Positions 2,903 through 27,912 of a DNA stretch of 31,841 nt are shown one piece after another. The DNA is taken from positions 1 through 31,841 of the IMG/VR virus record IMGVR_UViG_2558860161_000007. One strand, 5' to 3'. This DNA is from a virus. Taxonomy: Duplodnaviria; Heunggongvirae; Uroviricota; Caudoviricetes. The notes under the pieces were generated by a model. That model was not told the DNA's origin. It ran no database searches and saw only the letters and a program-made list of their open reading frames with translations. Position 1 is the stretch's first letter. Each line of letters starts with the position of its first letter. Both the position numbers and the translations under genes were made by a program.

Positions 2903-3477
2903 ACCGGACCTCCGGTGGTATCGCCGCCTTTCAGGACGCCAGTATGCTGATGCGCATCAACCACGATCCCGTTAGAACTCATCGCTCCGCCGCCCTGGGT
3001 AACGCCACCATTGATCACCACTTCGCTGTTAATGCGCGTGCGGTCAGCCTCCAGTACAAACTCACTGGTTTTCATGGTGATGTTGTCAGCGGCCTCAATG
3101 ACCATTGATTTGATGCCCCTGACATACCAGCGCCCACTGGCGGGTTCGTATTCAAACCAGCCACCGTCAGGATGTTCTGTCACGCAGGCGTCCGCCGACG
3201 TCGACGGTGGTGCGAACTGATTCGAATAGACAGCGGGCAGCGCAAAGGCCGTCTCCAGATTGCCGCCCAGACTCAGCAGCACCACCTGCTCACCTTCCGA
3301 TGGTCGCCACCATGTGCGGGCATTACCCGCGCGCAGCGTCAGCCAGTTAATCCAGTTGGTTTCAAGGTCGCCCGTTTTCACCCGGCAAAGCCAGTTTTCC
3401 CGGTCCACTTCGGTGACTACACCAGTGCGGATCAGGTTGGTGATAAGGCGCATGATTTCGGTTAATTGTGCGTTCAT
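2899..3477 (-). CDS. V: Baseplate spike/assembly protein V (P2 gpV-like)
   Basis: 192-aa ORF; N-terminal region (TGVV..V....CRV.TG) and C-terminal glycine-rich end resemble P2 gpV; first gene of the V-W-J-I-H block. Confidence 0.85.
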   Translation of the reverse strand: MNAQLTEIMRLITNLIRTGVVTEVDRENWLCRVKTGDLETNWINWLTLRAGNARTWWRPSEGEQVVLLSLGGNLETAFALPAVYSNQFAPPSTSADACVTEHPDGGWFEYEPASGRWYVRGIKSMVIEAADNITMKTSEFVLEADRTRINSEVVINGGVTQGGGAMSSNGIVVDAHQHTGVLKGGDTTGGPV

Positions 3478-3523
3478 AGGGAAAGGTTGCCATCAGGGGA
3501 AGAAAGGCGGCAGTGCTGCAACT

Positions 3524-3541
3524 TGTATCAGTGCTGATACA
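3524..3541. promoter_or_regulatory. TGT-N12-ACA dyad (candidate Ogr/Delta-type late-promoter activator site) upstream of gene V
   Basis: Sequence tgtatcagtgctgataca read directly, ~55 bp upstream of the V start codon. P2-family late promoters carry a TGT-N12-ACA element near -55. Confidence 0.4.
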
Positions 3542-3545
3542 AAGA

Positions 3546-3992
3546 TCATCCCGCCAGCCATTGCAGAATCATGTCGCGGGTCATTGCCTCAACATCATCA
3601 TTTACACCCAGCAGGCGGCGCTCTGCGTAACGGACCTCCGGTCCTTTGCGACTGACGCGATCACGCAGGCCGTAATGGTGAACACGGGCAATACGCTGCA
3701 CCTTGCCTTCAAACTGTACGCTGGCAGAGTCGGCGCTGGCGGCAGTTTTCAGGTATTTTGTGGTGCGCAACTTTGCAAACATCTGACGTTTGATGCGGCC
3801 TTTCTTGCTGCGTGCTGTTACCCTGCGCGGTTCATAACTGCTGCCATCTGGATTGCGCTGCATCCTGATATTCTGCTGCTGTGTCCGGCGCAGTTCCTGC
3901 GCCAGCTGGCGCATCATGCGGCTTCTCGTGGCTGGTTCCAGATTCGCCAGCAAGGCACTCAGCCAGTCGTCCACCTTCTGCAGTTCAGCCAC
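3546..3992 (-). CDS. S: Tail completion protein S (P2 gpS-like)
   Basis: 148-aa ORF; size and position after R and before V; resemblance to P2 S. Confidence 0.75.
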   Translation of the reverse strand: MAELQKVDDWLSALLANLEPATRSRMMRQLAQELRRTQQQNIRMQRNPDGSSYEPRRVTARSKKGRIKRQMFAKLRTTKYLKTAASADSASVQFEGKVQRIARVHHYGLRDRVSRKGPEVRYAERRLLGVNDDVEAMTRDMILQWLAG

Positions 3993-8519: not shown

Positions 8520-9353
8520 TCAGCAATTGGTCAGAGTGTCAGCGGGGGCGTTACCGCCTGTTGCACGCTGGCGGTAGTCCTGGCGGCTGTCTACATGACT
8601 CAGCTTATTCACCAGTTCGTTAAAGGCGGTCTGCTGTGCCTGCAGGGCAGTCTCCAGCTCAGACAGACGTTCTTCCTGCTCAGACAGGGATTTTTCGGTG
8701 CGTGCGCTCAGGTTCTGCTGCTCAGTGGCGACCAGCTCCACGGCCTTATGCACATCAGAGAACCGGGCGTCATCGGACTGCTCTTTTTTGGTAAACAGCG
8801 CCGTGACGCGGGCAAACAGGGACGGTTTGTCGTCCTGGACTTCTTCCAGTTCGATCACCGTTTCCTCTGCGGCGGTAAAGAGATTGGCGGGATTCTGCTT
8901 GCGGTTTGCCAGCGGGTTATGGGCTGCACTGGCGCTGAATGTCAGCATTTCAGTGCCCAGACTGGCAGGGTCATCAGTGGCAGCCAGGCCGACCAGGTAG
9001 GCTTTGCCCGTATCAGCGAACTTCGGGCTGACTTCCATAGAGGTGAATAATTTCTGGCCTTTTTTCACCAGCTCCACCAGGGACTCCGTTGGCTCAACGT
9101 CGGCATACAGCGCCATCTTGCCTGCCAGCGGACCTTCCGTGATTTCTTCAGCAAACAGCGCCGTCACCTTGCCGTAGCGGTTAAAGGTGCTGTCCGGCAG
9201 ATAAGACTTGATGTGCTCAAGGTTAATCAGCGCGGTATACACCGCCGGGTTATAGCTGGCTGCCATCTGTTCCAGCCATTCACGCTGGATTTCGCGTCCG
9301 TCGGTGGTGGCACCTTCCACCCCGATGCGAAAACGCTTTGCTTTCACTGTCAT
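8520..9353 (-). CDS. O: Capsid scaffolding protein O (P2 gpO-like)
   Basis: 277-aa ORF; acidic coiled-coil C-terminus; first gene of the leftward late operon, divergent from P. Confidence 0.85.
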   Translation of the reverse strand: MTVKAKRFRIGVEGATTDGREIQREWLEQMAASYNPAVYTALINLEHIKSYLPDSTFNRYGKVTALFAEEITEGPLAGKMALYADVEPTESLVELVKKGQKLFTSMEVSPKFADTGKAYLVGLAATDDPASLGTEMLTFSASAAHNPLANRKQNPANLFTAAEETVIELEEVQDDKPSLFARVTALFTKKEQSDDARFSDVHKAVELVATEQQNLSARTEKSLSEQEERLSELETALQAQQTAFNELVNKLSHVDSRQDYRQRATGGNAPADTLTNC

Positions 9354-9431
9354 GAGCCGTGCTCCGTTAGAAAAAACTTACTGGAGCCTTATGGTTGCGG
9401 TGATAGGGGCAGTGAAACAATGCGCGGTATT

Positions 9432-9449
9432 TGTACCGACAACCACACA
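9432..9449. promoter_or_regulatory. TGT-N12-ACA dyad (candidate late-promoter activator site) in the O/P divergent intergenic region
   Basis: Sequence tgtaccgacaaccacaca read directly; geometry fits a late promoter for the O operon. Confidence 0.4.
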
Positions 9450-9495
9450 AACCGCAGGCGGGGAAAGCCTTCATTCAAGGCTGTAGGTTTGTGCC

Positions 9496-11262
9496 ATGAA
9501 CACCACACTGACACCCGCAGATCTCGATCCCCGTCGGCAGGCCATGCTGCTGTACTTTCAGGGATACCGCGTCGCCCGCATTGCTGAAATGCTGGGCGAG
9601 AAAGTTGCAACCGTTCACAGCTGGAAAAAACGCGACAAGTGGGGTGACTATGGGCCGCTGGATCAGATGCAGCTCACCACCGCCGCACGCTACTGCCAGC
9701 TCATTATGAAGGAGCACAAAGAAGGGAAAGATTTCAAAGAAATTGACCTGCTGGCGCGCCAGTCGGAGCGCCACGCGCGGATCGGCAAGTTTAACAATGG
9801 CGGCAACGAAGCCGACTTAAACCCTAACGTCGCCAACCGCAACAAAGGCCCGCGCCGTCAGCCGGAAAAGAATGTTTTCACCGATGAGCAGATTGAGAAG
9901 CTGGAAGAAATCTTCCATTCCTCCATGTTTAACTACCAGCGCCACTGGTGGGAAGCCGGAAAAACCAACCGCATCCGCAACCTGCTGAAGTCACGCCAGA
10001 TCGGCGCGACCTTTTACTTTGCCCGTGAAGCCCTGATTGACGCTCTGCTTACCGGACGTAACCAGATTTTTCTTTCCGCCAGCAAGGCACAGGCTCACGT
10101 CTTTAAGCAGTACATCATAGACTTCGCCAAAGAAGTCGAGGTGGAGCTGAAAGGCGATCCGATGGTGCTTCCTAACGGAGCCACGCTTTACTTCCTCGGC
10201 ACCAATGCCCGCACGGCCCAGAGTTACCACGGCAACCTGTATCTGGATGAATATTTCTGGATACCGAAATTCCAGGAACTGCGCAAAGTTGCCTCCGGGA
10301 TGGCCATTCACAAGAAATGGCGACAAACCTACTTTTCCACGCCGTCCAGCCTTACCCACAGTGCCTATCCGTTCTGGTCCGGTGCGCTGTTTAACCGGGG
10401 CCGCGCCAAAGCGGACAAGGTGGATATTGACCTGACCCACAGCAATCTTGCGCGCGGCCTGCTCTGCCCTGACGGACAGTACCGCCAGATCGTCACCGTG
10501 GAGGATGCGGTGCGCGGCGGCTGTAACCTGTTCGACCTCGACCAGCTGCGCATGGAGTACAGCCCGGACGAATACCAGAACCTGCTGATGTGCGAATTTA
10601 TTGACGATTTGGCGTCAGTATTCCCGCTCAGCGAACTGCAGGCATGCATGGTGGACAGCTGGGAAGTCTGGACCGATTTTCAGGCTCTGGCGCTGCGCCC
10701 GTTTGGCTGGCGCGAGGTCTGGATCGGATACGACCCGGCGAAAGGCACGCAGAACGGTGACAGCGCCGGGTGCGTGGTGGTGGCACCGCCAGCCGTGCCG
10801 GGCGGCAAGTTCCGCATTCTGGAGCGACACCAGTGGCGCGGGATGGACTTCCGCGCCCAGGCTGACGCCATTAAAAAACTGACGCAGCAGTACAACGTGA
10901 CATACATCGGTATCGACTCGACCGGCGTTGGTCACGGGGTTTATGAGAACGTGAAAGCGTTCTTTCCTGCCGTGCGGGAGTTTGTCTACAACCCCAACGT
11001 CAAAAACGCCCTGGTGCTCAAGGCCTACGACATCATCAGCCACCGCCGTCTGGAGTTTGACGCCGGACACACTGACATTGCGCAGTCATTCATGGCAATC
11101 CGTCGCGCAACCACCGCCAGCGGCAACCGCCCGACCTATGAAGCCAGCCGCAGCGAAGAAGCCAGCCACGCCGATCTGGCCTGGGCAACAATGCACGCAC
11201 TGTTTAACGAACCGCTGCAGGGCGAATCCGCCAATACCAGCAATATTGTGGAGATTTTTTGA
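9496..11262 (+). CDS. P: Terminase large (ATPase) subunit P (P2 gpP-like)
   Basis: 588-aa ORF, nearly the P2 P length; Walker-A-like KSRQIGAT motif; overall resemblance. Confidence 0.9.
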   Translation: MNTTLTPADLDPRRQAMLLYFQGYRVARIAEMLGEKVATVHSWKKRDKWGDYGPLDQMQLTTAARYCQLIMKEHKEGKDFKEIDLLARQSERHARIGKFNNGGNEADLNPNVANRNKGPRRQPEKNVFTDEQIEKLEEIFHSSMFNYQRHWWEAGKTNRIRNLLKSRQIGATFYFAREALIDALLTGRNQIFLSASKAQAHVFKQYIIDFAKEVEVELKGDPMVLPNGATLYFLGTNARTAQSYHGNLYLDEYFWIPKFQELRKVASGMAIHKKWRQTYFSTPSSLTHSAYPFWSGALFNRGRAKADKVDIDLTHSNLARGLLCPDGQYRQIVTVEDAVRGGCNLFDLDQLRMEYSPDEYQNLLMCEFIDDLASVFPLSELQACMVDSWEVWTDFQALALRPFGWREVWIGYDPAKGTQNGDSAGCVVVAPPAVPGGKFRILERHQWRGMDFRAQADAIKKLTQQYNVTYIGIDSTGVGHGVYENVKAFFPAVREFVYNPNVKNALVLKAYDIISHRRLEFDAGHTDIAQSFMAIRRATTASGNRPTYEASRSEEASHADLAWATMHALFNEPLQGESANTSNIVEIF

Positions 11263-12355: not shown

Positions 12356-12694
12356 TCAGCAGACGGCATATACACCATCAAATCCAACAGAAGGCACCTT
12401 CTTTGATGCTACTTCATTGCTACGACGCTGGATCACCTTTGCAATACTTTTTAAAATTGAAGGGGATGCATTGCGAACCTTTACCTGGCTCAAAACTTTG
12501 GTTACGCCGAATTTCACAACCAAAACACCAAAGATTTCATCAGAGTATGATTCTGAAATTGAATAAACGCCGCTCAAATCCAAATCAACAAAGTTCCCCT
12601 CATTGATGAGAACTTCAATCTTGTGCCGTTGGGGGATAGCCTGATTGCGCGAAGCCAGGTCACCCTCGGGCAACTTGTATGCAATTTTATTCAT
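12356..12694 (-). CDS. Small STAS-like (anti-sigma-factor-antagonist-like) protein; second gene of a two-gene cargo operon
   Basis: 112-aa ORF; segment FVDLDLSGVYSISESYSDEIFGVLVVKFG resembles the STAS/SpoIIAA-type core; AGGAGG Shine-Dalgarno inside the end of the upstream gene, and its start overlaps that gene's stop. Confidence 0.55.
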   Translation of the reverse strand: MNKIAYKLPEGDLASRNQAIPQRHKIEVLINEGNFVDLDLSGVYSISESYSDEIFGVLVVKFGVTKVLSQVKVRNASPSILKSIAKVIQRRSNEVASKKVPSVGFDGVYAVC

Positions 12695-13815
12695 TACTCT
12701 CCTCCTAACGCCCGCATGATTTCCATAAGTTGAGGGTCATTTTCTTCGTTATCGTAATCTTTATCGATCGCCAGTTCATGAATCTTAAAACGGCATGAAA
12801 TTGCCACACCTGACCACTCTTTATGCAATTCAGTGTAGCTCAATTGATCACCAACTGCCTCTAAGCATACATTTCCTGTAGCCAGTTGCAATTCCCCGTT
12901 GTATGTTTTTACCAATTTCATCAAGTGATATAGACCAAGCCCTTGATGATTATTCTCTTTTTCTTTAACTGCTACCGGAACACTTGCACCAAAGACGCTT
13001 CCACCCATATTGTCATACGGCAATTGCTGTGCCCAATCATCTATCAGATCAGCATGTTTAGATGAGTTACCTTCTTGTATACACCATGCTATGGCATCAC
13101 GATGATTGTCAATTCCTTTGATGCCTGCGCGCCTTAACTCTCTAAAAAACCCCATGCCACAGTCTGCAAGAGCAAACTCAAGATAATGCTCTTTTCCACC
13201 GGTTCTTGGTACTGCCCATTTTTGCGCAAAAGAAAAACCGGTATCCCTACCATGCGACCAGACGTTGTCGTGTAACTCACCAACCACACGTGTGAGATCG
13301 TTTATCCCTTGAGGATAAACCTTCCTCTCAGGGAATGTTAATTGCCTAATACAGCTATTTATACTTGAAGTAGCTGAATCGACTGCTTCAACATTCTTCA
13401 GAGCTGTCACAAGGCTGTAGTTGGTTCCGACATTAACTCTTTTTTGGTCATAACGGTCTTCCCCCCAAACAGCTTTGTGCAGACCAATGGCATTCATGTA
13501 ACCTGCGCCAGGTAAGTTGCAAGCATCTTCTGACAGCTTATTGTGATTTATATAAGCAGCCAAGACAGCAATATAGCCAGGGTGACAATGGTCATTCGGT
13601 AAAAGCAATTTCCCCTCACCACGATCATGAAATATAGCAATGCGGTGAATACCATCTTTTAGACCAAATCCCATTGACCAATCTCCACGAAAAATTTCCC
13701 CTATAATATCGCCTGGGAAAACTGAGCGCAAAGTAAAGCACTTAACCAAGCTTGCGCGCGCTCGTATCCCCGCCACGCCTGCCCGCTTTATGTAGTGGTT
13801 TTCATGCACCTGCAT
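12694..13815 (-). CDS. GHKL-superfamily (histidine-kinase-like) ATPase domain protein; first gene of the two-gene cargo operon
   Basis: 373-aa ORF with N-box-like VVGELHDNVWSHG, G1-like LADCGMGF and G2-like HQGLGLYHL in canonical order. The first ~27 codons overlap the cos-like site; an alternative start at Met48 (~13674) has a GGAG Shine-Dalgarno. The region is lower in GC than flanking phage genes. Confidence 0.6.
   Translation of the reverse strand: MQVHENHYIKRAGVAGIRARASLVKCFTLRSVFPGDIIGEIFRGDWSMGFGLKDGIHRIAIFHDRGEGKLLLPNDHCHPGYIAVLAAYINHNKLSEDACNLPGAGYMNAIGLHKAVWGEDRYDQKRVNVGTNYSLVTALKNVEAVDSATSSINSCIRQLTFPERKVYPQGINDLTRVVGELHDNVWSHGRDTGFSFAQKWAVPRTGGKEHYLEFALADCGMGFFRELRRAGIKGIDNHRDAIAWCIQEGNSSKHADLIDDWAQQLPYDNMGGSVFGASVPVAVKEKENNHQGLGLYHLMKLVKTYNGELQLATGNVCLEAVGDQLSYTELHKEWSGVAISCRFKIHELAIDKDYDNEENDPQLMEIMRALGGE
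13761..13800. other. cos-like site (cohesive-end region) of the P2/186-type prophage
   Basis: Reverse complement reads GGCGTGGCGGGGATACGAG, resembling the 19-nt P2/186 cohesive-end core as I recall it; the flank is homologous to two repeats in the satellite (24567..24640, 24878..24960). Confidence 0.5.
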
Positions 13816-20419: not shown

Positions 20420-21445
20420 ATGACCATCAGAAAACAGCCGAACGGAAAGTGGTTATGTGAATGCTACCCAAACGGGAGAGATGGCAAACGCGTACGCAAA
20501 CAATTTGCGACGAAAGGCGAAGCCATTGCGTTTGAGAATTTCACCATGGATGAGGTAAACAAGAAACCTTGGCTGGGAGAAAAGGAAGATCGGCGACAAC
20601 TGTCAGAAGTGATTGAGCAATGGTATTCCCTGTACGGTCAGACACTCGCTGACCCTAAGCGATTAATGGCTAAGTTAAAAATCATTTGTAATGGACTTGG
20701 CGATCCCATCGCTTCTGAATTGACAGCAGGTGATTTCACAAAGTACCGGGAAGCCAGATTAAAAGGTGAGGTCAAAAACGAAGATGGCGTGCTCATGTCA
20801 CCGGTTAAGCCCAGAACGGTGAACCTTGAACAGCGTAACCTATCCTCAGTTTTTGGCACACTGAAAAAGCTGGGACATTGGTCTGCACCCAACCCCCTCG
20901 CCGGTCTGCCAACTTTCAAAATTGCAGAAGGTGAACTGGCGTTCCTTGCTGCTGATGAAATCAAACGCCTGCTTGACGCATGTGCTGAATCTCAAAGTCC
21001 CAGTCTGCTAATGATTGCCAAGATTTGCCTGGCTACCGGGGCAAGATGGAGCGAAGCCGAAAACCTGCAAGGTAACCAGATATCAAAGTATCGAATTACC
21101 TATACCAAAACAAAAGGAAAGAAAAACCGAACTGTTCCTATTTCTCAGGAACTGTATGAAGAATTACCCAAAAACAGAGGAAAGTTATTCACACCATGCC
21201 GAAAGGCTTTTGAGCGTGCGGTAAAACGAGCTGGAATTGAACTACCTGAAGGTCAATGTACCCACGTTCTGCGCCACACTTTCGCCAGTCACTTTATGAT
21301 GAACGGCGGAAACATTTTGGTATTGAGGGATATTTTAGGACACGCTGATATTAAAATGACCATGATTTATGCCCATTTTGCACCGGATCATCTGGAAGAT
21401 GCCGTTACCAAAAATCCACTTCATAACCTCAACTGGCATCGCTAA
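20420..21445 (+). CDS. int: Tyrosine integrase (P2/186 family)
   Basis: 341-aa ORF; C-terminal catalytic region HVLRHTFASHF...LGHADIKMTMIYAH with the conserved R, H-x-x-R and Y; adjacent to the att core. Confidence 0.9.
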   Translation: MTIRKQPNGKWLCECYPNGRDGKRVRKQFATKGEAIAFENFTMDEVNKKPWLGEKEDRRQLSEVIEQWYSLYGQTLADPKRLMAKLKIICNGLGDPIASELTAGDFTKYREARLKGEVKNEDGVLMSPVKPRTVNLEQRNLSSVFGTLKKLGHWSAPNPLAGLPTFKIAEGELAFLAADEIKRLLDACAESQSPSLLMIAKICLATGARWSEAENLQGNQISKYRITYTKTKGKKNRTVPISQELYEELPKNRGKLFTPCRKAFERAVKRAGIELPEGQCTHVLRHTFASHFMMNGGNILVLRDILGHADIKMTMIYAHFAPDHLEDAVTKNPLHNLNWHR

Positions 21446-21562
21446 TAAATGGCGGCATTTTGGCGGCAGAACACTAAAAACAAGTAAAACAAGCAAATAC
21501 AGACTAACACTAACACAATGATTTAAAATAAAAAAATATGATTTTGTTAGTATAAAAATGGT

Positions 21563-21607
21563 ATGTAGGAATTTCGGACGCGGGTTCAACTCCCGCCAGC
21601 TCCACCA
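21563..21607 (+). other. ssrA: Attachment-site core identical in character to the 3' end of tmRNA (ssrA), ending ...GGTTCAACTCCCGCCAGCTCCACCA
   Basis: The ~45-nt atgtaggaatttcggacgcgggttcaactcccgccagctccacca matches my recollection of the enterobacterial tmRNA 3' terminus; upstream is AT-rich phage DNA and the int stop, so only a 3' fragment is present. Confidence 0.65.
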
Positions 21608-21642
21608 AATAATGATCCGGATGTGTCCGGTGAAGTACAGAA

Positions 21643-21677
21643 AGCCCGCATGGCACAAGCCCTGCGGGCTTTTTTGT
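21643..21677 (+). terminator. Rho-independent terminator (likely the native ssrA terminator)
   Basis: Perfect stem agcccgca / tgcgggct with a 12-nt loop, followed by TTTTTTG. Confidence 0.6.
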
Positions 21678-21720
21678 GTCTGTCGTTGTCCGAGGGCATC
21701 CGGCTAAATCCAGTGTTTAT

Positions 21721-21770
21721 TGGTATACGTTTTGGTATACGGTAGGATGTATACCTAAAAGCGTATACCA
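21721..21770. promoter_or_regulatory. Cluster of four GTATAC palindromes upstream of the satellite integrase; candidate regulator or arm-type binding sites
   Basis: tggtatacg, tggtatacgg, atgtatacct and gcgtatacca within 50 bp, read directly. Confidence 0.3.
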
Positions 21771-21791
21771 ATTCATGAAGGAGCGGCCACA

Positions 21792-22991
21792 GTGGCACGG
21801 ACAACTCGCCCCCTAACCAACACCGAAGTTCTGCGCGCGAAAGCGTTAGAGAAGGATCTAACGCTGCATGATGGTGATGGGCTTTTCCTGATAGTGAAAA
21901 CTAGCGGCAAGAAACTCTGGCGCTTTCGCTATCAACGCCCAGCAACAAAACAACGGACTATGATGGGACTTGGTGCTTTTCCTGCCCTTTCTCTTGCTGA
22001 TGCCCGAGGGTTAAGAGCAGATTACCTTGCCCTATTAGCCAACGGAATCGACCCGCAAATTCAAGCTGAAGTTGCAGAGGAACAGCAGCAAATCGCTCTG
22101 GACAGTATTTTTTCGACGGTCGCCGCTAACTGGTTCCAGCTCAAAAGCAAAAGCGTTACCCCTGATTACGCTAAAGATATATGGCGTTCACTGGAAAAAG
22201 ACGTATTTCCAGCTATCGGTGAGACCCCTGTCCAGCAAATCAAAGCCCGAACACTGGTTGAAGCCCTTGAACCGATCAAAGCACGTGGGGCGCTGGAGAC
22301 AGTTCGTAGACTGGTACAGCGTATCAACGAAATAATGATTTATGCGGTTAACACTGGCTTGATTGATGCCAACCCCGCATCAGGTATTGGTATGGCTTTT
22401 GAGAAACCCAAAAAGCAAAACATGCCGACGTTGCGACCAGAAGAATTGCCTAAGCTGATGCGTTCGCTAGTCATGTCAAATCTATCTGTTCCGACTCGCT
22501 GTCTTATTGAGTGGCAACTCCTGACGCTCGTGCGCCCTTCTGAGGCTTCAGGTGCTCGATGGGCTGAGATCGATCTCAATGCCAAACTCTGGACAATTCC
22601 AGCCGAACGAATGAAAGCTAAACGTGAACATATAGTACCTCTATCTACACAGGCGTTAGAGATTCTAGAAGTGATGAAGCCAATCAGTGCTCATCGCGAA
22701 CATGTTTTTCCGAGCAGGAACGACCCCAAAAAATCAATGAACAGCCAAACGGCAAACGCTGCCTTAAAACGCATAGGCTATGGAGGTAAGCTTGTTGCTC
22801 ATGGTCTACGTTCTATAGCGAGTACAGCTCTTAATGAAAATGGTTTTAATCCAGATGTAATTGAAGCAGCATTAGCACATTCGGATAAGAATGAAGTAAG
22901 ACGTGCATATAATCGTTCTACCTATTTAGAACAACGTCATGAGTTAATGAATTGGTGGGGTTGTAAAGTTTGCCCTACCAATTCATTATAA
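21792..22991 (+). CDS. int: Tyrosine integrase (P4/CP4-57 family) of the satellite element
   Basis: 399-aa ORF (GTG start); N-terminal arm-binding-type region (GDGLFLIV...KLWRFRY) and C-terminal catalytic region (AHGLRS...ALAHSDKNEVRRAYNRSTY). Confidence 0.9.
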   Translation: MARTTRPLTNTEVLRAKALEKDLTLHDGDGLFLIVKTSGKKLWRFRYQRPATKQRTMMGLGAFPALSLADARGLRADYLALLANGIDPQIQAEVAEEQQQIALDSIFSTVAANWFQLKSKSVTPDYAKDIWRSLEKDVFPAIGETPVQQIKARTLVEALEPIKARGALETVRRLVQRINEIMIYAVNTGLIDANPASGIGMAFEKPKKQNMPTLRPEELPKLMRSLVMSNLSVPTRCLIEWQLLTLVRPSEASGARWAEIDLNAKLWTIPAERMKAKREHIVPLSTQALEILEVMKPISAHREHVFPSRNDPKKSMNSQTANAALKRIGYGGKLVAHGLRSIASTALNENGFNPDVIEAALAHSDKNEVRRAYNRSTYLEQRHELMNWWGCKVCPTNSL

Positions 22992-23002
22992 GATAAAACA
23001 GA

Positions 23003-24421
23003 TCATACTTTACCGGGGTATGTTTTAAACATACTCCTTAATACGTCAAATGTCTGTTCACCTATGATTGAAAATTCTTTAATCATTTCCATTAAGTTAT
23101 TTCGGCTAATCAAGAAAATATACAAACCTTGATCTTTCGATATTTCTTTCACTCTATCAAGATACTTTTCCTCGGCAGAATTTTCGCAGAATATTAAACC
23201 TATCTTAGAATTACATTCTTCGACTTTTCTAAGTGTAGTATAAATATGTTCCTCGTTCAATTTATGCTGAGGATCAATGACATTTACAACTATCAACTCT
23301 GAAATAATGTTGTACACTGAAAAATCGAAAAAGAAACCTTTCTTAGCCTCATTAATTAATGAAAAGAGGCAGCACTGTTCATCCTCACTTATTAATTTGG
23401 GGTAAAACAAGCTAGGATAGAAGATTGAAATCAATATTTTCTTGTATGCTTTAGTGTAATTACTAAAGTCGTTGTTTTTAATTGATAAATCAATATCTTT
23501 CATTAGATCTTTTATGGGGAGAATTACAGGATCTTCATCCTTATCAAAATCACTATGCGCTAGAGGATTCGGAGGATTAATCTCCAGCTCTTTTTTATAT
23601 TCTTTCAAGGTGTTAGGGTATTTTACGAGCTGAGACTCGATAAATCCCTTAGTCTGACCATACTCATCAATGATACTTGTTGTGGTAACAATCCGCTCCC
23701 CTTTAAGCACTTTAACTAATGCCGAGCCAGAGCTTATCAATTCCTTTTTCATTTCCGGAATAATATGCCTCCGATATAAATCCCTATGTGAATAGATTAT
23801 CTCTTCACGTGCAAGTATCTTAGGAATAAGGATAATCTCCTCGCCTTCATAAACAGGGAGATGAAAACGATTTTTATGCCATTTACTACTAACCTTATCC
23901 CACGTTTTGACTTCTGAAACCTCTTTAGTCTCAATGCCGTAAAATATACAAATATCCTTTGTATATTCTATAAAAAAACCTTTGAGAATATTACAAACTG
24001 AATCCGATATTCGGTCAGAACCAATACCTGGGATAGTCAGAGCTGTATCTTCTAGATCAGTTAATATTCCTGATTTTGCAGCCTGACTACTCTTTAGAGA
24101 ATCCAAAATATCTTCAGCAGTTTTTTCACCAAGAGCAGTTCCGGATGATTCTTTTGTTGAATATCCTAAATGAAAGGCATTGGTCTCTCTTAGTGATGAC
24201 AATAAATAAGCAGCTTTTTTAAAATTATTATTCTTTATAGACGCCATTATTTCTGTAAAATAGTCTTGTAACGCGTAAACTAAATCCTGCCCCCATTGGG
24301 ATTTTAAAACCTTTATAGATGTTGGATCTAAAAAAAACCTTAAATCAGTATGCAGAGGAATATCCAAAAAATCTAACGCTACTTGTCTGCCTTCAACTCC
24401 AAAAGCCTCTGAAAACCTCAT
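23003..24421 (-). CDS. Hypothetical AT-rich cargo protein (~472 aa) in the satellite int-cos hotspot
   Basis: ORF 23003..24448; likely start is the ATG at ~24421 with a GGAG Shine-Dalgarno. GC is markedly lower than its neighbours, it is convergent with int, and I recognise no domain by eye. Confidence 0.55.
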   Translation of the reverse strand: MRFSEAFGVEGRQVALDFLDIPLHTDLRFFLDPTSIKVLKSQWGQDLVYALQDYFTEIMASIKNNNFKKAAYLLSSLRETNAFHLGYSTKESSGTALGEKTAEDILDSLKSSQAAKSGILTDLEDTALTIPGIGSDRISDSVCNILKGFFIEYTKDICIFYGIETKEVSEVKTWDKVSSKWHKNRFHLPVYEGEEIILIPKILAREEIIYSHRDLYRRHIIPEMKKELISSGSALVKVLKGERIVTTTSIIDEYGQTKGFIESQLVKYPNTLKEYKKELEINPPNPLAHSDFDKDEDPVILPIKDLMKDIDLSIKNNDFSNYTKAYKKILISIFYPSLFYPKLISEDEQCCLFSLINEAKKGFFFDFSVYNIISELIVVNVIDPQHKLNEEHIYTTLRKVEECNSKIGLIFCENSAEEKYLDRVKEISKDQGLYIFLISRNNLMEMIKEFSIIGEQTFDVLRSMFKTYPGKV

Positions 24422-24566
24422 GTAACACTCCTTTACAATAATCAACATAAAAACAAGAGCATTCTTATTTTTATAGCAAAGGTGGTTTAATCACAAGATC
24501 TTATGAATTGAGCAACAATAATTATCCCTATTTTTTGAAGCTGACGAACATTTCACGTTGCGTACA

Positions 24567-24640
24567 GAGCTTTCCCCGCCTCGCCTGCACGCCTCGTGGG
24601 TCTGTTTTAATGCAGTTGCTTTGCGAGGCTCAGGCTGCCA
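24567..24640. repeat. cos-like repeat copy 1 (P2-type variant)
   Basis: Reverse complement reads GGCGAGGCGGGGAAAGCTC; homologous to copy 2 and to the helper cos-like region. Confidence 0.5.
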
Positions 24641-24877
24641 CAGACTCGAATACGTCAAGGGAATAGCAGCTTTAGAAGCGACGTAATGAACGCCAGAATG
24701 ACTAGTTTCCTCCACCGCCGGGCGGCCTTTTCTTGCACTTCTCCTGACCACCTCAGGGCTCTCCACGCCCTCGAACAGCACCGCACCACCCACCGACACT
24801 CCCGAGAACCCGCGCAGTACAGCGACGCACTCAGGCCGCGAAATTAAATATAATTAAATACTTTACCGCTGGCGCGC

Positions 24878-25653: not shown

Positions 25654-25896
25654 TCAGTGGCGCAGCGATGACCGGGCGCAGTCCAGAATTCGGGGCGGTG
25701 TTTCTGGTACTGTTTGTGGTGGTTCGGGCTTTTCTTCTGCCGGTGGCCGTATCACCTCGTCGATAGACTCGGTGGTGCGAAAGGTTGCGGAGCAAAAGAC
25801 ATTCACGCACTGGAGGTAGCTCTGTTTGACGTTATCTGACAGGTAACGGCTGGTACGGACATGGGCAGCCTGTTTGCAGTACGGGCAGCGCATCAT
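25654..25896 (-). CDS. delta: Delta/Ogr-family zinc-finger late transcription activator
   Basis: 80-aa ORF starting MMRCPYC with CPYC...C..C..CSATF, the hallmark of Ogr/Delta. Confidence 0.85.
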   Translation of the reverse strand: MMRCPYCKQAAHVRTSRYLSDNVKQSYLQCVNVFCSATFRTTESIDEVIRPPAEEKPEPPQTVPETPPRILDCARSSLRH

Positions 25897-26696: not shown

Positions 26697-26770
26697 CGTC
26701 GGGTTCTCTCTGTGTTTTCAACCTGACGCCATTCTGCCGTCCCTCAGACAACAACTCGATTCATTGCCGT

Positions 26771-26788
26771 TGTAGCAGACATGGCACA
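26771..26788. promoter_or_regulatory. TGT-N12-ACA dyad upstream of the sid operon (candidate Psid activator site)
   Basis: tgtagcagacatggcaca, ~83 bp upstream of the sid-like start. Confidence 0.4.
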
Positions 26789-26864
26789 AACAGGACTTAA
26801 AAACCCGGCTGGCCAGAGAAAGGTCGCAGGAAACCCCCTCTCTCTGTTTGTTTTTTTACATATA

Positions 26865-26970: not shown

Positions 26971-27247
26971 GTCTGAACATCCCGAATGTAAATTTTATGC
27001 GGTATGTCCTATTAATTCATGCTGTTAGGGTGATTAAATCAATTTGCATTTCACTTTTGAAATCTCCAGTGCCTTATAACTCCTTCCAGTGCCTTTAAAT
27101 GGTCTTGAGTAAAAAAACAGCACCCGTTGTCCCGTGCTTTGTACAATTTCCCCCTGTTGCATTGAGAAAAAATATTCACAAAATAGAGCGCTACCTGATA
27201 CCGGACGGACACGTCCGGATCTCTGCGGATATTAACGAGGTAGCGTT

Positions 27248-27549: not shown

Positions 27550-27665
27550 TTGCATCCGTTGTGTGTTTCCTGGTACAGTTTTGTCGCTGTCGCAAAATCG
27601 ACAGCCGGGCGTGGAAACCCGAGCAACTCGAAGGCGACACCAGACGCGCCATGCGTCTTTTTTTG
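27550..27665 (+). ncRNA. Candidate small structured RNA (promoter-hairpin-terminator unit) in the satellite immunity-region position
   Basis: TTGCAT-18 bp-TACAGT promoter-like hexamers, hairpin gctgtcg-caaaat-cgacagc, then stem agacgc-gccat-gcgtct followed by TTTTTTT; the long overlapping ORFs here lack convincing starts. Confidence 0.3.
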
Positions 27666-27912
27666 TGTCGCAACTAACGCCACAGAGCGCCAGATAATGG
27701 CGTGGTGTGCGGATCGTCGTGCAGACGTCACTTTGTGTCTCCTGTCCGCAATCGCATATCATGCTGTCATGTCAATGGTAGCTCAGGCGGGGCAGCCCTC
27801 GGGCTGGCCGGTATTCTTCGAGGCCGGTATTTCCACCCCCGTCTGGGCTATCGCCACTGAGCGTGGAAACTCCGGCGATAGCAATAATTTGCTACTCGAA
27901 GGAGGTTGCCTT

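Follow-up and report, generated by a model that had tools for sequence, protein, structure and literature searches.

A single TGT-N12-ACA dyad as the probable shared activator site of the divergent O and P late promoters in a P2-family prophage

An 18-bp inverted repeat in the O/P divergent region of a P2-family prophage is, judging from its sequence and surroundings, very probably the docking site of the small zinc-finger activators Ogr and Delta. We consider it highly likely that this dyad is one single site shared by two late promoters, PO and PP, for activators of the Ogr/B/Delta type, and plausible that the Delta protein of a neighboring satellite could act on it in trans. The window analyzed here is the whole stretch of 31,841 nucleotides in which the original prediction had placed a TGT-N12-ACA element between the O and P genes. 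Indeed, TGTACCGACAACCACACA was found at 9432-9449, exactly the position first given, and the identity of the gpO and gpP flanks was confirmed as well. By position and sequence, the dyad is the orthologue of the activator site shared by PO and PP in phages P2 and 186, here in an uncharacterized but common prophage clade. The element is of an ordinary and well understood kind, the prediction of a leaderless terminase mRNA being the only new angle.

[quoted passage not shown] TGT-N12-ACA is the consensus at four P2 late promoters (PMC3931495), while a variant, TGTTGT-N13-ACAACA, was described in Ralstonia phages (PMC5694545). The late genes of both P2 and P4 are activated by the delta protein of P4 (PMC8628076).

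In the mechanism that we propose, an activator would bind 9432-9449, midway between two divergent sigma-70 late promoters with no usable -35, and the bound protein would be positioned some 55 bp ahead of either start. The part of the alpha subunit that is contacted in P2 is its C-terminal domain. On the left, PO (start near 9382-9386) would produce a leadered mRNA for the scaffold, the capsid, the small terminase and the downstream genes; on the right, the first base transcribed from PP (-10 TAGGTT) would be position 9496, the A of the gpP ATG, so that the terminase-portal mRNA would be leaderless. The usual activator would be the Ogr homologue of the prophage itself, encoded outside the window, and the Delta of the neighboring satellite could switch on the O/P site in trans. 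The target had first been described as the late head operon; the O operon would indeed be served, but not the head operon alone, as the same dyad would also serve P-Q, which encodes the terminase and the portal.

We assigned the prophage to the P2 family because its gene order matches that family, with J-W-V-S-R-lysis-X-L-M-N-O on the minus strand, P-Q on the plus strand, then a cargo region, gpA, a CI-type repressor and the integrase. The lysogeny module of this helper, with its CI-type repressor, is 186-like, and the gpO-like protein shares 47-48% identity with P2 O and 186 V. The dyad sits within the 142-bp intergenic region 9354-9495 (173 bp in P2) between the scaffold gene (gpO homologue, minus) and the terminase gene (gpP homologue, plus); the coordinates of all features are collected in Table 1. 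P2 has the same flanking genes, O and P, and likewise no -35 consensus. Its RefSeq record (NC_001895) carries one site, described as "activator binding site; pO, pP promoters", at 3057-3087, and the window, too, has a single dyad that both promoters would share. The center of the P2 dyad, TGGCTTATCACTGACACA, is 55.5 bp from each mapped start (P operon 3016, O operon 3127). A comparison with the PO and PP promoters of P2 had been suggested with the original prediction, and the two layouts superimpose on the P side, reading ACA + 34 nt + TAGGTT + TGTGCC + A in the window and ACA + 34 nt + TAGCCT + TGCCGT + G(+1) in P2. The left half-site is TGG in P2, whereas the window has a perfect TGT with TTGT/ACAA flanks. 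Similarly, 186 (NC_001317, 3798-3817) has a B-protein site, TGGACAACCGCCCACACA, that is shared by p12 and pV and lies between the gpP and gpO homologues as in the window; this dyad is TGG-N12-ACA and continues into ACAAC, again as in the window.

Table 1. Positions of the dyads, promoter elements, genes and integration features in the window; promoter elements and starts are predicted.
Feature	Position	Strand	Remarks
Putative activator-binding dyad TTGTACCGACAACCACACAAA	9431-9451	no strand	core TGT-N12-ACA 9432-9449, center 9440.5; common to divergent PO and PP
gpO-like scaffold/protease gene	8520-9353	minus	phrog_73, E 1e-114; first gene of the leftward late head operon
gpO Shine-Dalgarno GGAG	9362-9365	minus	8 nt before the ATG (9353); surrounding columns invariant in the 46-sequence alignment
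Predicted PO start zone	9382-9386	minus	from geometry; places the dyad center between about -55 and -58, with a leader of some 29-33 nt
Predicted PO -10 CAACCA/AACCAT (O-sense strand)	9391-9397	minus	same place as the P2 PO -10 GAAACT, 34 nt after the dyad
Predicted PP -10 TAGGTT	9484-9489	plus	aligns base for base with P2 TAGCCT, 34 nt after the dyad ACA
gpP ATG	9496-9498	plus	A is 55.5 bp from the dyad center and 7 nt after the -10; predicted PP start
gpP-like terminase large-subunit gene	9496-11262	plus	opens the rightward P-Q operon
Sister PV dyad TTGTATCAGTGCTGATACAA	3523-3542	no strand	center 3532.5, 55.5 bp from the gpV ATG (3477); -10 CAACCT at 3484-3489
Prophage integrase	20420-21445
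ssrA 3' end GGACGCGGGTTCAACTCCCGCCAGCTCCACCA	21578-21609 (context 21445-21792)		ends CCACCA at 21609; between the P2-like and satellite integrases
Satellite (second) integrase	21792-22991
Satellite delta gene	25654-25896	minus	80-aa single-domain Ogr/Delta zinc finger; Cys4, Cys7, Cys30, Cys35
Second satellite dyad TCTGCCGTCCCTCAGACA, one mismatch	26733-26750	no strand	centered near -17.5 relative to the predicted Psid start; P4 Psid is alike
Psid-like dyad TTGTAGCAGACATGGCACAA	26770-26789	no strand	center 26779.5; predicted start near 26724; -10 CAGAAT 26731-26736; sid ATG 26696
PLL-like dyad TTGTCCCGTGCTTTGTACAA	27127-27146	points rightward	predicted start near 27191-27192; 56-nt leader, then 88-aa ORF (27248)

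The O/P intergenic regions of 80 related viral contigs (84-100% gpO identity) were reduced to 46 distinct sequences and aligned. The deposited phages that come nearest to the prophage are Escherichia phage 500465-1 and Cartapus, which belong to the genus Elveevirus and share about 99% identity, together with Klebsiella phage 4LV2017 and Salmonella SopE-phi, SEN8 and RE2010. Conserved -10-like hexamers lie on both sides of the dyad; the starts they predict are 55.5 bp from its center for PP and about 55-58 bp for PO, in agreement with the mapped starts of P2. In the PP hexamer, T-12, A-11 and T-7 are invariant among the 46 relatives (TAGGTT, TATGTT or TAGGCT). By eye, AAGCCT (9465-9470) looks like the TAGCCT of P2, but positional alignment makes TAGGTT the true counterpart. 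As a candidate PP -10, AAGCCT was rejected, its last T being changed in 19 of the 46 relatives and the dyad then falling at about -36. The PO hexamer is weak, with a register that is ambiguous by 1-4 nt; five of its six columns are invariant in the same alignment, and it resembles the PV (CAACCT) and PF (CAACAT) -10 elements of the clade. A sigma-70 consensus scan of 9250-9600 found no promoter, as expected because activator-dependent promoters without a -35 should give none. The initial assignment to the Ogr/Delta type of late-promoter element was thus borne out by the equivalence in position with the P2 (3057-3087) and 186 (3798-3817) sites, by the conservation of the half-sites described below and by these hexamers about 55 bp to either side.

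With a conserved TAKGYT hexamer exactly at the position of the P2 PP -10, and with one site serving both promoters in P2 and in 186, it seems improbable that the dyad is a genuine activator site for one promoter alone (for example PO) while P-Q is transcribed from another start with a short conventional leader. Such a leader is suggested by an AGG located 8 nt before the gpP ATG, where anti-Shine-Dalgarno pairing in the window (AAGG/TAGG) reaches -6.1 kcal/mol, a value similar to that of its own gpO, and by the fact that enterobacteria translate leaderless mRNA inefficiently. However, this pairing is unconserved, roughly half of the relatives having ATG (TATGTT) instead of the AGG, and no conserved -10 candidate was found farther upstream of gpP, where AAGCCT loses its final T and TTCATT is variable.

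The shared activator site is further supported by the way in which the dyad is conserved. All nine columns of the half-sites, TTGT and ACAAA, are invariant in the 46 distinct sequences, while nine of the 12 spacer columns vary and three are invariant (spacers among the relatives include ACCGACAACCAC, GCGGTCGGCCAT, ACGGTAAACCAC, GCCTTTCGCCAT and ACCGCCCGTCAC); over the whole intergenic region, 71 of 142 columns are invariant. Fixed half-sites around a free center are, as a sequence pattern, the hallmark of a dyad bound by a protein that contacts both half-sites. We regard as very unlikely that the repeat is instead an RNA or DNA hairpin (terminator or attenuator) or the operator of an unrelated regulator. 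A consensus scan did detect a 5-bp stem (9425-9438, minus) overlapping the left half-site, but this stem has no proper T-run and is not kept in relatives, and TGT/ACA by itself provides no more than 3 bp of pairing. Neither strand of 9420-9460 folds better than shuffled sequences do (z = -0.5), and a search of Rfam gave no family match at the O/P dyad.

The motif alone proves nothing, since bare TGT-N12-ACA is not enriched in the window: 10 copies are present against 7.39 +/- 2.55 in shuffled sequences, 20 of 100 shuffles reaching 10. Allowing one mismatch, there was again no enrichment (142 copies versus 144 expected). The O/P dyad is a perfect match that extends to TTGT-N12-ACAA (9431-9450), and this longer form occurs four times in the window versus 0.54 +/- 0.77 expected, with 1 of 100 shuffles reaching four. 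Each of the four lies between genes, ahead of a late-type operon (3523-3542, 9431-9450, 26770-26789 and 27127-27146). Cartapus, a complete relative, has exactly three copies of TTGT-N12-ACAA, one each before O/P, V and FI, and the five other bare matches in this genome all come without the TTGT/ACAA flanks. It is hardly credible that the O/P copy reflects the chance appearance of a short degenerate motif and lacks any function in regulation: the bare count (10 versus 7.4) and an apparently accidental copy at 9490-9507 speak for chance, but we take the O/P copy as real because its half-sites are invariant across the 46 relatives around a variable spacer, its position is that of the annotated P2 and 186 sites, and the extended motif is in excess and found only at late-type promoters.

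The copy at 9490-9507, TGTGCCATGAACACCACA, is also a perfect TGT-N12-ACA and lies over the gpP start codon and coding sequence. It was rejected as a candidate site, since roughly half of the distinct relatives have TGG or TGA in place of its TGT, and from this variation it is probably a chance match.

The geometry of the dyad places the predicted PP start on the gpP start codon, as counting 55.5 bp from the center (9440.5) leads to 9496, where the A of the ATG lies. In all 46 relatives the ATG is exactly 55.5 bp from the dyad center, even though residues 2-4 of the protein differ (MNTT, METM, MDMT). The in-frame TAG at 9484-9486 excludes an upstream gpP start, and codons 5-16 show synonymous differences only between the window and one relative (L051), so that translation must begin at the 9496 ATG. 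On balance, we lean slightly towards the interpretation that here, and apparently in most P2-family lineages except P2, 186 and P88, the A of the gpP AUG is the first base of the P-Q transcript. The constant spacing between dyad and ATG was considered as proof of a leaderless mRNA and rejected, because it is just as strict in two leadered clades: the distinct sequences compared, 16 from the P2 clade and 50 from the 186 clade, all show 78.5 bp. This value corresponds to 55.5 bp plus a 23-nt leader, and it is exactly this leader that the clade of the window does not have. Indeed, P2 has a 23-nt leader with a GAGG Shine-Dalgarno before the gpP ATG, and the terminase side of 186 also has a 23-nt leader, unlike the window, where the predicted start falls on the ATG.

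In place of the constant spacing, our case for a leaderless mRNA draws on a comparison across genera and on the contrast in Shine-Dalgarno words. Across the family, an ATG located 55.5-57 bp from the dyad center and 6-7 nt after a -10-like hexamer was found in eight lineages, namely the clade of the window, SEN5, YenM_06.16-2, phiCTX, phiX216, FLC10, Alfacinha3 and a Mannheimia phage; for phiCTX, phiX216 and the Mannheimia phage, the ATG in question is in frame with the annotated start and lies downstream of it. The hexamer followed by 6 nt and an ATG was likewise seen in RSA1, Milagro and a Zymomonas element, although the RSA1 dyad is 50 bp from the ATG rather than about 56. Leaders of 18-23 nt are present in P2, 186, PSP3, Kp4884-2, P88 and Kp4849-1, and no clear dyad was seen near gpP in Smp131 and Shewanella M16-3. 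By this survey of sequences, the leaderless-type layout is common but not universal. All 12 lineages with this layout (the window and 11 others) use an ATG start codon, and none of them carries a GGAG, GAGG, AGGA or GGGGG word in the 20 nt before it; a Shine-Dalgarno word (GAGG or GGGGG) is present in six of the six leadered lineages. In the minimum-energy fold of the predicted PP mRNA, the first 12 nt are unpaired.

A precedent is provided by the PV promoter of P2, where the start of the V operon (10308) is annotated as the first base of the V coding sequence and the activator site is centered 55.5 bp upstream. In the window, PV and PP are alike in this respect, and in Cartapus the PV dyad has the same relation to the gpV ATG; unlike P2, where V alone is so arranged, both V and P are predicted to be leaderless here. 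This precedent rests on the P2 RefSeq annotation, and our literature search found no explicit statement that the P2 gene V mRNA is leaderless. If the P-Q transcript is indeed leaderless, the 18-23-nt Shine-Dalgarno leaders of P2, 186 and P88 would be a derived state, and the database gpP starts of phiCTX, phiX216 and Mannheimia 2256AP1 would have been set too far upstream, within the promoter itself.

Several deposited annotations of this region were also examined. The annotated gpP start and the in-frame ATG are at 430 and 451, respectively, in phiCTX (L245), at 415 and 451 in phiX216 (L251), and at 364 and 400 in Mannheimia 2256AP1 (L250). These deposited starts are 21-36 bp from the dyad center, within the predicted promoter, and the in-frame ATG, at 57.0 bp, fits the geometry; in phiCTX, an N-terminus starting there also agrees in length, judged by eye, with those of homologues. 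In YenM_06.16-2 (L246, 359-454), a "hypothetical protein" coding sequence runs across the O/P promoter region and is probably spurious. In SEN5 (L249, 345-445), the O/P intergenic region spans 99 bp, and 44.5 bp separate the dyad center from the gpO ATG as annotated, too little for a -55 promoter, suggesting either that the start is mis-annotated or that PO is organized differently.

The element beside the prophage is, by its gene content, a P4-like satellite. Like P4, it has sid-delta-psu, an alpha primase and a C4/CI RNA; more specifically, we found Psu (PF07455), an Ogr_Delta protein, an ORF at the sid position, the C4/CI antisense RNA, isrK and a 777-aa alpha-type primase that runs to the window end. 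Rfam matches to isrK (27586-27663, plus, 73.9 bits) and to the C4 antisense RNA (27771-27858, plus, 76.1 bits) are consistent with a P4-type RNA-based immunity region. The satellite Delta matches PF04606 (Ogr_Delta) with 65 bits (cut-off 26.3) and has an intact CX2CX22CX4C motif with all four cysteines. It shares 44% identity with P2 Ogr, 36% with the Ogr of Cartapus and 29-34% with each half of P4 delta, which has two domains in 166 aa, whereas the satellite protein has a single Ogr-like domain in 80 aa. The own Ogr-like gene of the helper clade, outside the window, is found next to gpD in Cartapus (22568-22786), and its product would be the primary activator.

The dyads of the satellite are arranged as in P4, with a perfect dyad centered 55.5 bp before the predicted sid start and the one-mismatch dyad near -17.5. 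In P4, two dyads centered at 9501.5 and 9539.5 precede the sid ATG at 9583, the first of them, 81.5 bp from the ATG, being equivalent to that of the satellite Psid. From the PLL-like dyad to the 88-aa ORF, the distance is 55.5 bp plus the 56-nt leader, the same layout as before P4 orf88. By analogy, the satellite Delta would have to recognize TTGT-N12-ACAA at its own promoters, and, with no more than 36% and 44% identity to Cartapus and P2 Ogr, respectively, its recognition of the helper sites is an assumption, though a plausible one. Transactivation of the O/P site by Delta is plausible and agrees with all the sequence evidence, and it is a reasonable proposal because satellite and helper sites share TTGT-N12-ACAA, with half-sites near TTGTRY.

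Both elements appear to be integrated in tandem at ssrA, as a 3' end of this gene lies between the two integrases and ARAGORN found no intact tmRNA in the window. The satellite thus apparently differs from P4, which integrates at the tRNA-Leu gene leuX. Among 5426 complete E. coli genomes, only one covers at least 80% of the prophage-satellite junction, at 88.5% identity.

Cargo genes were observed in both elements. In the int-psu hotspot of the satellite, two genes are found at 23003-24448 (minus) and 24491-24799 (minus): the 481-aa protein matches the PADLOC candidate defence family PDC-M36A (E 2.8e-32) but has no Pfam or NCBIfam hit, and its 102-aa neighbor has no matches at all. Two further cargo genes (12356-13815, minus) lie downstream of the portal gene, at the position of old/tin in P2. 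The 373-aa protein matched phrog_3364 (function unknown) only, with no Pfam, PADLOC or NCBIfam match, and the 112-aa protein carries a DUF4325 (STAS-like) domain with a weak match to a DrmA region; these two genes could be an uncharacterized defence pair.

In conclusion, late-gene control in a widespread prophage clade of Escherichia, Klebsiella and Salmonella (Elveevirus, SopE-phi-like) very likely follows the P2 model, and exploitation of the helper driven by the satellite is mechanistically plausible, since the adjacent P4-like satellite uses the same activator motif. The analysis offers a stricter search motif, TTGTRY-N8-RYACAA at a fixed distance from the -10, for late promoters of P2-family prophages and P4-like satellites, and it flags probable mis-annotations of terminase start codons. 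If the terminase mRNA is leaderless, enterobacteria, for which few leaderless mRNAs are known, would gain an example conserved across the family, which could help to study the dosing of low-copy packaging proteins.
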